Source: Terriglobia bacterium
GTDB lineage: Bacteria; Acidobacteriota; Terriglobia; 20CM-2-55-15
Direction: 5' to 3'
Assembly (NCBI GenBank): GCA_965198225.1
Contig: CBDAOY010000004.1
Coordinates: forward strand, 96,001 to 160,000
DNA: 64,000 bases
Positions 2,439-54,749 of this stretch are shown piece by piece. Position 1 is the first letter of the stretch, and every line of letters starts with the position of its first letter. The position numbers and the translations under genes are program-made. Under the pieces are notes generated by a model, which saw only the letters and a list, made by a program, of their open reading frames with translations, was not told the DNA's origin and ran no database searches.

Positions 2439-2839
2439 ACTATCAGCCAGTCTGACTTCCGACAGGCCTTCGGGTCTTCCTCGCGTTGTTGGCTTGTCCA
2501 ACCCTACAAGCTCCGCTTGAACCTGACGGATCTCCCTTGTTCCCATGAAATCCTTGGTTGCATGCCGGCGGTACGAACCCCGGAAGCACCCCAGGGCACT
2601 TGCCATTGCGTGCCCTGCGATTCCGCCTTCCCCCTAGAGCGACAGGGTCGGCTACTTCAACCACGTTCGATTTCGGGGCTATCTTTCCGTTCACTGGTGT
2701 TCCGGCCTACTCCCTCCCTGTCTACGCTTCGCAGTGTCCGTCACCGACCACCACGCAAGACTCGGTACGTGGCTGCCGGCTAGGCTCTGCCACGGCCGCC
2801 ATCTCAGGCGACTGGATCTCATGCGCTTGCAAGGCGCAA

Positions 2840-49439: not shown

Positions 49440-49543
49440 GGAAGGCCTTGCCGCAACCCTGCTCCCAGCACGTCAGCCCGATCGAATGGGACCACGTCAT
49501 CCTCTACGGCCAGTACGTCCTCGATCGCGCCCTGGTCCGCTAA
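49440..49543 (+). pseudogene. Tn3-family transposase C-terminal fragment
   Basis: QHVSPIEWDHVILYGQYVLDRALVR*. Confidence 0.7.
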
Positions 49544-49799
49544 GGAACGGGTCCTTATGTTGTATTTCAACGTGCGCCGTGAGAAGGCGCCAATCCTCAG
49601 CGGGTGCGAATCCCGCCCGGCAACTGTCGCTCCAGTCGGTAGCAATCGGAGCGGATGGTGGAGGTAACAACATCGTCTGAAGCACTCCGATGACAAAGGG
49701 CCGCCTCGGGCGGCTCAGCGACCACACAGGCCACAACGCGAGTAAACGCCGAGCAGGCCTCGTATGTGGACGCCCCCCTGGTTGGCAAGCCTGACTTCG

Positions 49800-50130
49800 A
49801 ACCGAGGATCGGTGGCATTCAGGTCAGGTACGGTCGTATGTGCGGCCTCTTGATGCGGCACTTGCTGGCCGCGGGCCCGTATGGTGTTCGTGAGATCGGA
49901 TCCAAATCGAAACGACGGGCTCGATGGCCCTTCGAGGCCTACTGGGTTTTCCGATCCCGTCTTGTCGACCGTTTGCCCCTACCTTGTCCGACGTCCTGCT
50001 TGCACTCTCCAGTTGGAACCTCCGTGGCCCGTGTCCATCCGCCCAGGCGGCCAGCCGAACGATTTCCTCTCTCTTCTCCGCGTTTCTGATCTCGCCGACC
50101 CTTCTTCGCTCCACTGATCTGACTCGCAAC
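49800..50130 (-). ncRNA. Predicted bridge RNA/seekRNA of the IS1111 element (ends approximate)
   Basis: Stem-flanked internal loops carrying target-matching (49907-49914, 49931-49940) and donor-matching (49834-49842) segments. Confidence 0.8.
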
Positions 50131-50131
50131 C

Positions 50132-51178
50132 CTACGCTGCAGCCGCAACGGCCTTTGTCATTCCCCGTGCCCTGTAGCTCTCCTCCTTCACCGTCATGGC
50201 CCAGATGATGCGTGCCATCCTGTTGGCCAGAGCCACCGCAACCACCTTCCTCGGCTTTTCGTCCAGCATCCGGCCAAGCCAGGGATCGGTGACCTTCCTC
50301 CGCCGGATGGCACTCGAGATGACCGCCGTCGCCCCCAGGTACAGGAGCCTCCGGATGTCGCGCTGTCCCATCTTTGTGATCCCTCCCAGCCGTTGGCGGC
50401 CACCCGTCGAGGATTCACGCGGCGTGATCCCGACCCATGCCGCAAAGTCACGTCCATTACGGAAGCTCTCCATCGGTGGCGCGAACGCGTGCACCGCCAT
50501 TGCCGTGAGCTCTCCCACCCCTGGAATCGTCATCAGGCGCCCGAGCGCCTCATCTTCCCTCACGATGCGACGGATCTCCCGGTCCAGCTCATCGATCTCC
50601 GCATCCAGATCGTGGGTCCGCTCGATGAGGCGGCGTATGGCGGGAGGCACCAGCGCCGGGAAACACTCTTCACGCTCCGCGAACACCTCCTCCAGCCTCC
50701 CGACGTTGTGGGTCCCAAGCGGAGCGACGAGTCCAAACTCCGCGAGATGACCCCGCAGCGCGTTGATCGTCTGTGTCCGCTGGCGCACCAGCAGTGCCCG
50801 GGCCCGGAACACCACCGATCGTGCCTGCTCCTCCTCGGTCTTCACGGCCACGAACCGCATCGTCGGCCGCTGGGCCGCCTCGACGATCGCTCCCGCGTCG
50901 TTGGCGTCATTCTTCTGCCTCTTGACGTACGGCTTCACATACATCGGGGGAATCAGGCGGACCTCGTGACCGATCTCCTGGATCATCCGCCCCCAATGAT
51001 GGGCGCTGCCGCACACTTCCATCACGACCCGGCAGACAGGCTGCTTGGCGAGGAACTCGAGTAGCTTCGGGCGCGTGAGCTGCCTGCGCAGCACAGGCTC
51101 ACCGCTTGCCGTGGCTCCATGCAGTTGGAAGTACCTCTTTGAAATGTCGATGCCGATGATGGTGATCACCTTGCCCAT
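50132..51178 (-). CDS. IS110-family DEDD recombinase/transposase
   Basis: IGIDISK, VMEVCG, KNDANDA, TIPGVG, SSTGGR. Confidence 0.95.
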   Translation of the reverse strand: MGKVITIIGIDISKRYFQLHGATASGEPVLRRQLTRPKLLEFLAKQPVCRVVMEVCGSAHHWGRMIQEIGHEVRLIPPMYVKPYVKRQKNDANDAGAIVEAAQRPTMRFVAVKTEEEQARSVVFRARALLVRQRTQTINALRGHLAEFGLVAPLGTHNVGRLEEVFAEREECFPALVPPAIRRLIERTHDLDAEIDELDREIRRIVREDEALGRLMTIPGVGELTAMAVHAFAPPMESFRNGRDFAAWVGITPRESSTGGRQRLGGITKMGQRDIRRLLYLGATAVISSAIRRRKVTDPWLGRMLDEKPRKVVAVALANRMARIIWAMTVKEESYRARGMTKAVAAAA

Positions 51179-51577
51179 GTATCCCTCCCTCTATCGTGTT
51201 CTGAACGCACCCCTTGTGCGTTCTGCTGACCCGGCCCATTCTGCCGCCGGGGAGCGGGGGCGTCCACTCCATCGAAACGCACAATGCGGAAGCCGACCCG
51301 CCGTTGAAACGGGGAAGGCTGCCAGCGGTCGGGAAGCGAGCGACGCGAGCACCGACTGGTTCCGCCGGGGTATTGGGCGGTGGCATGTATGGAAGAGGGG
51401 ATTGGACGCAACACGGGAAGCCCTGCCGGTGGCGTGGCACGCGCCAACCGACAGCCCGCGAGGGTCAGGTTGGGCCGACAGGGTGGCGGAGAGGTCCGCA
51501 GTACCAAGAAAGCCGGGTAATGCCGCGTGGAGGGAAGGGACCTCAGTTCGAGAGCAGCGCATGACGGAGGAAGGGCC

Positions 51578-52399
51578 ATGAGGACTGGCGAGAGCCTAAC
51601 AGCCTCGGAGAGAGTTCAGCGACTCCAGACGGCGCTACATGTAGAAAGCGAAGGAAGCCCTGGGCTTCCGGTTCTACTCTCTGAGCGACAAGGTGTGGCG
51701 CGACGACGTGCTCGCAGTCGCCTGGCAGGCCGTGCGACGCAACGGCGGCGCGACACGGGGTGGACGGCGAGACGGTCGCGGACATCGATGCGTTCGAGGT
51801 GGACCGGTGGCTGGGAGCACTGGCGCGGGACCTGAAGGAAGGGACCTATCGGCCGCATGCGGTTCGGCAGGTTCTCATCCCGAAGAAGCAACGAGGGAAG
51901 TTCCGGCCGTTGGGCATTCCGTGTCTCCGGGATCGGGTGGTGCAGACGGCGGCGATGCTGGTGTTATCGCCGATCTTCGAAGCCGACCTGCAACCGGAGC
52001 AGTATGCGTACCGGCCGGGCCGAGACGCGCATGACGCAGTCAGGCGCGTGCATCGGCTGCTGACGACGGGCCACCGGGAGGTGGTGGACGCCGACCTGTC
52101 GGACTACTTCGGCCAGATTCCGCACGCGGACCTGATGAAGTCCATCGCCCGGCGTGTGAGCGACGGGCGGCTGTTGGGCTGGGTCAAGGCGTGGCTGGAG
52201 ATGGCGGTGGAAGAGGACGACGGGCGCGGCGGTCGCCGCCGCACGAACCGGGCGCGTCACGAGCGGAAGGGGACCCCGCAAGGGTCTCCGATCTCGCCGC
52301 TGTTCAGCAACATCTACATGCGGCGCTTCATTCTGGGCTGGAAGGTGCTGGGCTACGCCCGGCACTTCAAGGCGGAAATCGTCAACTACGCGGATGACT
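51578..52399 (+). pseudogene. RT of intron A, frameshifted near the 5' end and cut immediately after YADD
   Basis: VQRLQTALH, RPLGIP, DADLSDYF, GTPQG, NYADD|. Confidence 0.9.
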
Positions 52400-54281
52400 G
52401 TGCGCCACGACGGTGCGTAGAGGAGGCGGTCATGTAGACGCCGAATCGACACAGCCTTGCTGCACGAGAGATGAGGGCGGGCCCCTCGGACTCGGGGTGC
52501 AGGCCCAGGGTCCAAACCGCCGGATGCTGCTCGGACCAAACGGCCGGGGTGGTGAGCGAGACGGAAAAGGCGGGACAAACCCGTCAGGTGAGCGATGGGA
52601 AGACGAACGTGAGTGAACCGCTGATGACGTGTCGAAAGCGTAGGGACGCCATCGAAACCAAGCTCCAGTCGTTGGCCTGGGATGAAGCTCGGGAGGAGCC
52701 TGTTGACTGCCCGAGCGGTGGCCGGCATGAAGGCGGCGTGAGCCCATTGCAGGCTCTTGTGCGGAACGTGGGAACCTATCGCCTCGATGTTAAGGGAGAA
52801 ATCCAAGTGGAGGACCCACAAGGATGAGAATACCGATGCGAGGCGAAGGGGCGGATGGGCTTGTAGGAGCGAAGAAGCCTGGTAATGCGGGTGGAGCAAA
52901 GGGGCCCAACTCTCTGGCCAAGGACGCCGGTCAACCAGCGATGGGAGGAGCCGGTGTCTGAGGCAAAGCCTTATGTGATTCCAAAGCAACTTGTCTGGGA
53001 ATCGTACCAGCGGGTGAAGGCGAACCGCGGTGCAGCGGGCGTGGACGGTGAGTCGCTGGCGGCGTTGGAGAAGGACCTGAAGGGGAATCTCTACAAGGTC
53101 TGGAACCGGATGTCGTCGGGCTCGTACTTCCCGCCGCCCGTGCGGCTCGTTGAGATACCGAAGGATAACGGCGGCAAGCGCCCACTCGGTATTCCCACTG
53201 TTGCCGACAGAGTGGCGCAAACGGTCGTGAAGATGGTGTTCGAGCCCTTGGTGGAGCCGGTATTCCACGAGGACTCGTACGGCTATCGCCCCGGCCGGTC
53301 TGCGCTCGATGCGGTGGGAGTGGCGAGGAAGCGCTGCTGGGGCGCGGATTGGGTCATCGACCTGGACATCAAAGCCTTCTTTGATTCCATCCCGCATGAC
53401 CTCATTGAGCGCGCCGTGGCCCACCACACTGACCTTCCGTGGGTCCGTCTGTACGTTGCGCGGTGGCTTCGTGTCGCTGTGCAGCGGCCAGACGGGATCC
53501 TGGAGGAGCGGACGACGGGCACGCCGCAAGGCGGAGTCGTCAGTCCGCTGCTGGCCAACCTGTTGCTGCACTACGCGTTCGACCTCTGGATGCAAAGGAC
53601 CTTTCCGAGCGTCCAGTTCGAGCGGTATGCGGACGATGCCATCGTCCATTGCAGGAGCGAACGGCAGGCGCGAGCAGTATTGGAGGCCATTCGGGGTCGG
53701 TTCGAGCAGTGCGGTTTGGAGCTTCATCCTGTGAAGACCCGTATCGTTTACTGCAAGGACGACGACCGGCCTGGGGACTACGAACACGTCAAGTTCGACT
53801 TCCTCGGGTACACCTTCCAACCTCGGCGGGCGAAGAATCGCTGTTGGAAATTCTTCGTGAGCTTCCTACCGGCGATCAGCGCCAAGGCCGCCAAGAAGAT
53901 CCGGGCCACCATCCGCGAATGGCGGATGGCGTCCACCAGGAACAACCAGCGTCTGGAGGACTTGGCACGGCTCATCAACCCGTCGGTACGTGGCTGGATG
54001 AACTACTACGGACGGTTCTACCGGTCGAAGTGTGTTCAGGTCCTTCGCCATCTCAACGAGGCCCTCGCGGCATGGGCGCGATGGAAATACAAGCGGTTTC
54101 GGCGACGTGAGCGTGCGTCGATGCACTGGCTGGGGCGCATCGCGCGACGGGACAGGCAGCTGTTTGTCCTGTGGCAACTCGGCATCGTACCCGAGGCTGG
54201 AGAGTAGGAGCCGGATGAGGCGAGAGTTTCACGTCCGGTTCTGGGAGGGCCCGGGGGGGAAGTTCCCCCGGGCTACTCGAC
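52400..54281 (+). mobile_element. Group II intron B (class D-like), complete
   Basis: GTGCG start; domain V GAGCCGGATGAGGCGAGAGTTTCACGTCCGGTTC; end CTACTCGAC; EBS1 AGTCGT at 52667-52672. Confidence 0.92.
52954..54207 (+). CDS. ltrA: Group II intron RT/maturase (RmInt1-like)
   Basis: VKANRGAAGVDG, WNRMSSGSYFP, GTPQGG, ERYADD. Confidence 0.95.
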   Translation: MSEAKPYVIPKQLVWESYQRVKANRGAAGVDGESLAALEKDLKGNLYKVWNRMSSGSYFPPPVRLVEIPKDNGGKRPLGIPTVADRVAQTVVKMVFEPLVEPVFHEDSYGYRPGRSALDAVGVARKRCWGADWVIDLDIKAFFDSIPHDLIERAVAHHTDLPWVRLYVARWLRVAVQRPDGILEERTTGTPQGGVVSPLLANLLLHYAFDLWMQRTFPSVQFERYADDAIVHCRSERQARAVLEAIRGRFEQCGLELHPVKTRIVYCKDDDRPGDYEHVKFDFLGYTFQPRRAKNRCWKFFVSFLPAISAKAAKKIRATIREWRMASTRNNQRLEDLARLINPSVRGWMNYYGRFYRSKCVQVLRHLNEALAAWARWKYKRFRRRERASMHWLGRIARRDRQLFVLWQLGIVPEAGE

Positions 54282-54749
54282 GTGTGCCACGAGCACTGAC
54301 GGGCGCAAGTCGGGTCAGTGCGCAACTGTTTCACTGATGAGGGAGGGCCCCTCGGAGCCGGCGTGCAGGAGCCGGCTTCAAACCACCTTCGGTGGCTGTG
54401 GTTAAAAGCCATGGTCGTGAGCGCAGAAGGAAAAGGCCCGGGAAGAACCGGGTCAGGTGGCTGGCAAGAAGAGGACCGCAAGGGAATCACTGATGACGTG
54501 TCGAAAGCGTAGGGACGATGTCAGAACCGTGGGGAGTCATTACCGCGGGATCAGTTCAGACGAGAATCTGCTTACGGGCTGAGCGGCATCCGGCATAAAG
54601 GTGGCCTGAGCTTGTCGAGAGGCGGTGAAACGGAACGTGGGAACCTGAGATTCCGATGCTAACGGAGACGCCACAAGTGGAAGAACCACGAGGGCCAGAG
54701 TACGAACCATCCTGGCTCGCGGAGTCTCAGGGGCGGAATGGCCCGTAGT
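54282..54749 (+). mobile_element. Group II intron C (class D-like), 5' part up to domain III
   Basis: GTGTG start directly after intron B; shares CTGATGACGTGTCGAAAGCGTAGGGACG with B; EBS1 AGTCAT at 54535-54540. Confidence 0.85.

Follow-up and report, generated by a model that had tools for sequence, protein, structure and literature searches.

The window analysed here, i.e., a stretch of 64,000 nucleotides of DNA from a Terriglobia bacterium, contains a group II intron (intron A) that is interrupted within domain I by an insertion sequence (IS) of the IS1111 type on the opposite strand. The features of the locus, with the basis of each assignment in brackets, are as follows.

49573-49762, plus strand, 5' section of group II intron A, comprising domain I as far as the IS (RF02003; homology to uninterrupted copies)
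49763-51271, minus strand, IS1111-type insertion sequence, 1509 bp as delimited in the original prediction
49763-49765, minus strand, 3-nt right extension ATA, after the right repeat (sequence)
49766-49777, minus strand, right subterminal inverted repeat, 12/12 against the left repeat (sequence; kept in relatives)
49763-49965, minus strand, conserved part of the 3' non-coding region, putative bridge/seekRNA gene of ~200 nt (identity to relatives and consensus fold)
49834-49889, minus strand, donor-binding region (3' arm covaries with the IS end; hairpin pair changes)
within 49834-49889, minus strand, donor stem GGCC/GGCC around a GCGGC/GCCGC hairpin (alignment fold)
49894-49956, minus strand, target-binding loop (arm/site matches, two-sided pair changes, arm/flank covariation)
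49906-49914, minus strand, arm 2 of the target-binding loop, RNA CGUUUCGAU (match to the intron site)
50132-51178, minus strand, transposase gene, 348 aa, DEDD transposase (Pfam PF01548 and PF02371)
51256-51267, minus strand, left subterminal inverted repeat, reading GTGGACGCCCCC along the IS, with the 7-nt extension CGATGGA before it (sequence)
51272-52399, plus strand, continuation of intron A past the IS (homology to uninterrupted copies stops at 52399)
52473-52589, 52885-54207 and 54206-54281, nested second intron (RF01999, reverse transcriptase/maturase ORF and RF00029, respectively)

Intron A opens with GTGCG at 49573. Its 5' part closes with the left copy of a TCG (49760-49762), and the part after the IS, which contains the start of a reverse transcriptase frame, begins with the right copy (51272-51274). 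The host carries the characteristics of a group II intron, i.e., a match to a domain I RNA model (Rfam RF02003 group-II-D1D4-4 on 49598-49741, plus strand, 82.8 bits, gathering score 49), GUGCG at the 5' end, and a reverse transcriptase frame of the intron type (Pfam RVT_1, 1.6e-26, in the ORF 51760-52437 downstream of the IS). A second group II intron (window 52400-54460) is nested inside the reverse transcriptase frame of intron A, and another RF01999 match is found at 54339-54458, after the RF00029 match of this nested intron. The left junction of the IS reads CAGGCC-TCG/TATGTGGACGCCCCCC (49760-49762/49763) and the right junction GGGGGCGTCCACTCCA/TCG-AAACGC (51271/51272-51274). It had been predicted that excision of 49763-51271 together with one TCG rebuilds the intron, and the 33-nt product of this excision is indeed found, without any difference, at two other places in the genome.

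The region hit by the IS is highly conserved. In an alignment of 15 introns that are 70-97% identical, GAGCAGGCCTCGAAA is unchanged in all 15 and the adjoining hairpins vary with compensation. Within this alignment GCCUCG is predicted to pair with CGGGGU, which is equally invariant, and the target site in domain I may tentatively be assigned to kappa. Relatives of the intron, as judged from domain I, occur in 33 of the 150 genomes sampled within the class. The related GCCCCGAAAT that had been attributed to another intron is present in the RF02005 alignment at window 2570-2804.

The element between the two junctions had been taken for an IS1111-type IS with a guide RNA encoded 3' of its gene, an identification that holds on the basis of protein domains, repeats, RNA fold and covariation. 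The 348-aa transposase contains PF01548 DEDD_Tnp_IS110 (2.9e-15) and PF02371 Transposase_20 (1.2e-21; both Pfam) and matches the transposases of ISCro4 (9t56) and IS621 (8wt6) by sequence. Residues D11, E54, D91, and D94 are unchanged across 21 aligned homologs and presumably represent the DEDD tetrad. Read in the orientation of the gene, the IS starts with CGATGGA-GTGGACGCCCCC and finishes with GGGGGCGTCCAC-ATA, and the transposase gene is flanked by 369 nt of non-coding DNA on its 3' side as opposed to 93 nt on its 5' side. The length of the IS becomes 1512 bp (49763-51274) if the repeated CGA is assigned to the 7-nt left extension, following the Hall/Ataide convention. In the available text of PMC11187229 the hallmarks of IS1111 are subterminal inverted repeats of ~11-13 bp with a left extension of 7 (or 6) nt and a right one of 3 nt, and the guide RNA is encoded downstream of the gene (PMC11187229 and PMC11208160, available text). 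The DEDD/Transposase_20 protein, the 12-bp repeats, the 7/3-nt extensions, and the 3' non-coding region therefore place the element in the IS1111 group. It differs from IS110 proper, as IS621 carries its RNA in the left (5') end and has repeats of 2-3 bp (PMC11208160, available text), whereas our element has its guide in the right (3') end and repeats of 12 bp. None of the curated RNA families in Rfam fits the 3' region (49500-52500 scanned, E up to 1), the intron model alone being matched. Folded as a single sequence the whole 369-nt region is no better than its shuffles (z = -0.41), and it is the alignment fold alone that is informative.

Written as RNA, the 3' region has the sequence ...GGGAUCGGAAAACCCAGU-AGGCCUCGAA-GGGCCAUCGAGCCC-GU-CGUUUCGAU-UUGGAUCCGAUC... 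All parts of the proposed target-binding loop were recovered where they had been predicted, i.e., the closing stem GATCGGA/TCCGATC (49894-49900/49950-49956, plus strand), arm 1 (TTCGAGGCCT, 10 nt, 49931-49940, plus strand; RNA AGGCCUCGAA), arm 2 (TCGAAACG, 8 nt, 49907-49914, plus strand), and between the arms a GGGC/GCCC hairpin (49917-49920/49927-49930; hairpin span 49917-49930). Arm 1 is the reverse complement of TT-CG-AGGCCT, and arm 2 has the target sequence CGTTT-CG-A(T) as read in the direction of the IS, so that the arms read opposite strands and overlap at the CG core as in the published systems. Together they match both halves of AGGCCTCGAAACG in domain I, and the match is perfect across the 13 nt covered. 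When the 369-nt region was shuffled 5000 times with dinucleotide composition preserved, 93 shuffles gave any match of at least 10 to the reconstructed site and nine gave at least 10 on one strand plus at least 8 on the other; judged from one element alone, the two-arm match is uncommon, not extreme.

Similarly, the donor 3' arm predicted at 49834-49842 (TCGTATGTG, plus strand) is upheld, its RNA CACAUACGA being equal over 9 nt to the right IS end plus the core. This arm follows the IS end in relatives (ACATACG, ACACACG, ACAGATG, ATAGACG, ATATACG). The 5' donor arm (49879-49889, RNA AACACCAUACG) matches the left end in part, as had been claimed; it has CCAU plus CG with an extra A and is without visible covariation across relatives. 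At the donor hairpin pair 119/135 the alignment fold has five two-sided changes. The donor-binding bases flank a stem-hairpin, unlike the simple internal loop of IS621, a feature that the available text of PMC11208160 notes for many IS1111 elements.

A protein search with the transposase returned thousands of homologs, among them proteins with 84-89% identity (P0003-P0011), and a scan of species genomes gave 80 related loci with transposases 53-87% identical to the one in the window. The last ~240 nt of the 3' regions of relatives have 70-85% DNA identity, which is above expectation from transposases that are only ~60% identical. Both IS ends could be placed by the inverted-repeat motif (GGACGCC core) in 49 of the 80 loci, the others being off contig or without the exact motif. 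From these 49 loci and the element of the window, 22 were dropped because they were near-duplicates with the same guides (L026, L028, L030, L036, L068, L069, L080, L085, L090, L094, L096, L097, L098), had longer 3' regions that could not be aligned (L038, L040, L042, L043, L052, L055, L086), or were flanked by part of a second copy (L031, L075), leaving 28 non-redundant rows for covariation. The covariation of arm and target implied by the original prediction is present in this set: the arms match their own flanks at 8.36 of 11 variable positions compared to 2.94 in cross pairings, a total that was reached by none of 100000 permutations. For six rows (L027, L029, L044, L045, L060, L092) the arm 1 score is as low as 0-1 of 6 owing to an alignment shift of 1-2 nt, and with the register corrected most of them do match. 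Closing stem, inter-arm hairpin, and donor stem-hairpin are all present in the alignment fold, in which 8 of 30 pairs are changed on both sides, and in the target loop the stem and hairpin columns 32/89 and 55/68 each have two-sided changes in 14 of the 28 sequences.

A reverse transcriptase was found within 3 kb of the related IS at none of the 80 loci (one match was spurious, being aligned to a non-coding part of the query), and there was no intron RNA match beside the related IS at the 20 loci scanned for it. The closest relative in a genome, L020 (87% aa identity), has different arms and adjoins a hairpin repeat. As the relatives examined target other, non-intron sequences, intron targeting is a trait of the lineage and not of the family, and the guide of these relatives is readily reprogrammed. 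The original claim that the IS is guided to a motif in domain I of group II introns stands for one intron lineage and falls for group II introns generally.

Taken together, it is very probable that an IS1111-group IS moves by bridge/seekRNA-guided recombination, with a natural guide directed at an invariant motif of 13 nt in domain I of one intron lineage. The 3' non-coding region would be transcribed and form two loops, of which the donor loop would read the joined IS ends (...CCACATA-CG-ATGGAG...) and the target loop both strands of the intron site, arm 2 (CGUUUCGAU) corresponding to the left half plus core, GCGTTT-CG, and arm 1 (AGGCCUCGAA) being read as the reverse complement of TT-CG-AGGCCT. 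Strands would be exchanged by the DEDD transposase at the CG core, and exchange at this position would always leave the IS antisense to the intron and duplicate nothing past the common core. Insertion would break the conserved domain I helix GCCUCG/CGGGGU, which most likely deprives the invaded intron copy of its ribozyme activity. The anatomy of the element, the complementarity of the guide to target and donor, the covariation among relatives, and the occupancy and conservation of the site are direct observations, whereas production and binding of the RNA, formation of a circle, catalysis, and loss of intron function are inferred. The term hyperparasite used in the original prediction fits the position of the element, and would imply an effect on the intron and a gain for the IS.

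The genome (9 contigs, 6.4 Mb searched) contains three copies of the IS, which are 100, 99.5, and 98.3% identical, the 98.3% copy being truncated. Had the IS inserted elsewhere, copies in unrelated DNA could be expected; all three are found at the intron site, at three distinct intron loci, and none at a non-intron position. Uninterrupted copies of intron A have the site as well, since AGGCCTCGAAACG is intact three times in the genome and always in empty intron copies. The three conditions that had been named as refuting the original prediction, i.e., copies at unrelated sites, arms that fail to covary with targets, and uninterrupted introns lacking the motif, have thus all been decided in its favour. 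The empty-site joint (49759 to 51272) is also present in contigs from four of four sequencing runs, one of which may be the source sample. The three host introns differ in their upstream DNA: one is 5'-truncated by 2-3 nt with unrelated DNA upstream, and upstream of the other two, just ~20 nt of sequence from the homing site are common to both. With regard to a second IS (see below), intron copies are found that carry both ISs, either one alone, or neither. The different loci and these four combinations indicate that the insertions were separate events, or at least did not arise by one block duplication. It is conceivable that the copies are dead relics, so that the guide match records a past event of an element that is now immobile, and the truncation of one of the three copies would agree with this. 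On the other hand two copies retain the full 348-aa frame (100 and 99.4% identity) and the arms are intact in all three, which makes such a state unlikely; that three empty perfect sites remain is neutral either way.

When metagenome contigs were scanned for the pattern of the occupied junction, two matches were obtained. One of them, L154, was rejected as a chance 22-nt match inside unrelated sequence. In the other, L155, an intron identical at 151 of 190 positions (~79%) is joined at the same base to an IS identical at 582 of 699 positions (~83%) and readable over 1167 nt, with arms that are still TCGAAACG and ATCGAGGCCT. The IS and the intron in L155 have thus both diverged by about a fifth, with guide and site kept. 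The occupied junction was found in one of 401 genomes sampled in the phylum, namely that of the window, and in none of the 400 others; the IS was found in none of 33 other genomes of the order, the junction pattern in no viral contigs, and no IS sequence at a contig end of G058 that lies near the site.

A second IS1111-type element of 1455 bp (G000:C5:608366-609820), the transposase of which is 36.7% identical to that of the first IS, is present in four copies, two in copies of intron A and two inside a multi-copy DDE transposase gene. Its site in the intron lies 240 nt downstream of the first and is unoccupied in the window (51515/51516). The RNA has a layout like that of the first IS, and the two arms, one being TTACCCGG and the other complementary in reverse to CGGCTTC, fit the second intron site and, nearly as well, the site in the DDE transposase gene, with matches of 10-12 nt at both. 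In G023 none of the 12 loci checked for copies of the second IS type was in the intron. A database protein (P0081) consists of ~197 aa of the N-terminus of a group II intron reverse transcriptase reading through into a 62%-identical IS110-family transposase, which points to another relative inside an intron ORF, and together with the second IS this suggests that nesting in other mobile elements is common in the clade. In another protein (P0112) the N-terminus of a DDE transposase is fused to a nearly identical IS.

The double residence of the second IS, with similar matches at both of its sites, raises the possibility that also for the first IS insertion is guide-directed and the intron a near-cognate or secondary site, the original target being elsewhere and absent from this genome. 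The ready reprogramming of relatives is compatible with this. However, the first IS matches the intron without a single mismatch over the 13 nt of its two arms, and L155 has the same guide and intron site at ~83% IS identity. The genome furthermore contains 15 one-mismatch versions of AGGCCTCGAAACG, three in a 90%-identical intron variant and 12 elsewhere, and all are unoccupied, including each of the 12 non-intron sites. We therefore consider a target outside the intron very improbable. Natural one-mismatch variants of the intron site are TCGGAACG and TCGTAACG; that the three intron variants, in which the mismatch adjoins the core, are empty agrees with specificity and could also be due to chance. 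Least probable of all is a single chance insertion into one intron copy, followed by duplication, gene conversion, or intron mobility. The intron flanks of the three copies are identical for at least 80 nt, and the 98-100% identity of the intron copies would make gene conversion possible. Against this, the arms spell the site and predict flanks family-wide, the three loci differ in upstream DNA, every combination with the second IS occurs among the intron copies, a diverged pair is joined at the same site in L155, and retrohoming would presumably be prevented by 1.5 kb of foreign DNA in domain I.

A further reading of the guided insertion is that the IS lineage is specialised on an invariant motif of the ribozyme core of a widespread group II intron lineage and would be a true hyperparasite, disabling intron copies, using them as a multi-copy safe harbour, and following its hosts. 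It is tempting to speculate along these lines as the motif cannot easily mutate, which could allow the IS to follow introns between hosts, but we hold such specialisation to be doubtful rather than probable. It would extend to two introns, L124 (G032:C1) and L132 (G150:C1), as possible scars of guided deletion. Homology in these introns stops at domain I positions 190 and 188, respectively, at most 2 nt from the core site. No IS110-type transposase is located within 1.5 kb of the breaks. The position of the breaks could be fortuitous or could represent a scar of recombination.

IS4321/IS5075 and the IS1111-attC group reportedly target the terminal repeats of the Tn21 family or attC (Partridge & Hall 2003; Post & Hall 2009). 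They are like the present element in being mobile elements within a mobile element; what they target are recombination sites in the DNA of transposons and integrons, whereas the target here is DNA encoding a core helix of the ribozyme of a retroelement. As far as given in the available text of Siddiquee et al. (2024; PMC11187229), ISEc11, ISKpn4, ISPst6, and ISPa11 share with our element the DEDD transposase, subterminal repeats of 11-13 bp and the 7/3-nt extensions, and the seekRNA elements of that study share the long downstream non-coding region with two target-matching segments as well as a fixed orientation and no added duplication. Their targets are a short linear site, an integron-cassette attC, or a REP, in contrast to the group II intron motif found here. 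The bridge RNA of IS621/IS110 (Durrant et al., 2024; PMC11208160, available text) is likewise a programmable guide with two loops, for target and donor, in which each arm reads one strand with a short core overlap. Mechanism and anatomy are thus those of the published IS1111 seekRNA elements and only the content of the guide differs, so that what we describe is a known mechanism with a notable target. The literature found contains no IS110/IS1111 element aimed at a group II intron, although the target-listing supplements of PMC11208160 and PMC11187229 could hold one, and the word intron occurs zero times in the main text of the two papers as available. The suggestion that this target class is undescribed is borne out to this extent, i.e., for literature other than the supplementary target tables.

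The locus provides a clean natural example of bridge/seekRNA elements choosing safe, repeated landing sites. The landing site is here the most conserved stretch of another selfish element, where a change would break its ribozyme. Retroelements can consequently be added to integron attC sites, Tn21 ends, and REPs as hosts for nesting of IS1111 elements. For intron biology the insertions suggest an overlooked cause of dead intron copies. In addition, an alignment of ~28 naturally reprogrammed guides with their targets is now at hand for an RNA to which no Rfam model matches.

Some minor observations concern the guide region and the surroundings of related elements. A 111-nt contig (run X1, record 1) that corresponds to window 49880-49990 has seven differences from the window, two of which are in target arm 1 (49931, 49936) and one adjoining arm 2 (49915); it may represent a sister element from this sample in which the guide is altered. 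In L024, 2 kb from a related IS, there is a type II hammerhead ribozyme (L024:6490-6558; RF02276, 40.7 bits). Finally, the region L056:4298-6909 consists of ~20 tandem units of 131 nt that correspond to the last 120 nt of the right end of that element, a stretch beginning at the donor arm and reaching the IS terminus, and single partial repeats of this kind are found in L031, L047, and L075. The donor arm has the same DNA sequence as the IS end plus core, and these repeats may have been produced by recombination between the two stretches.
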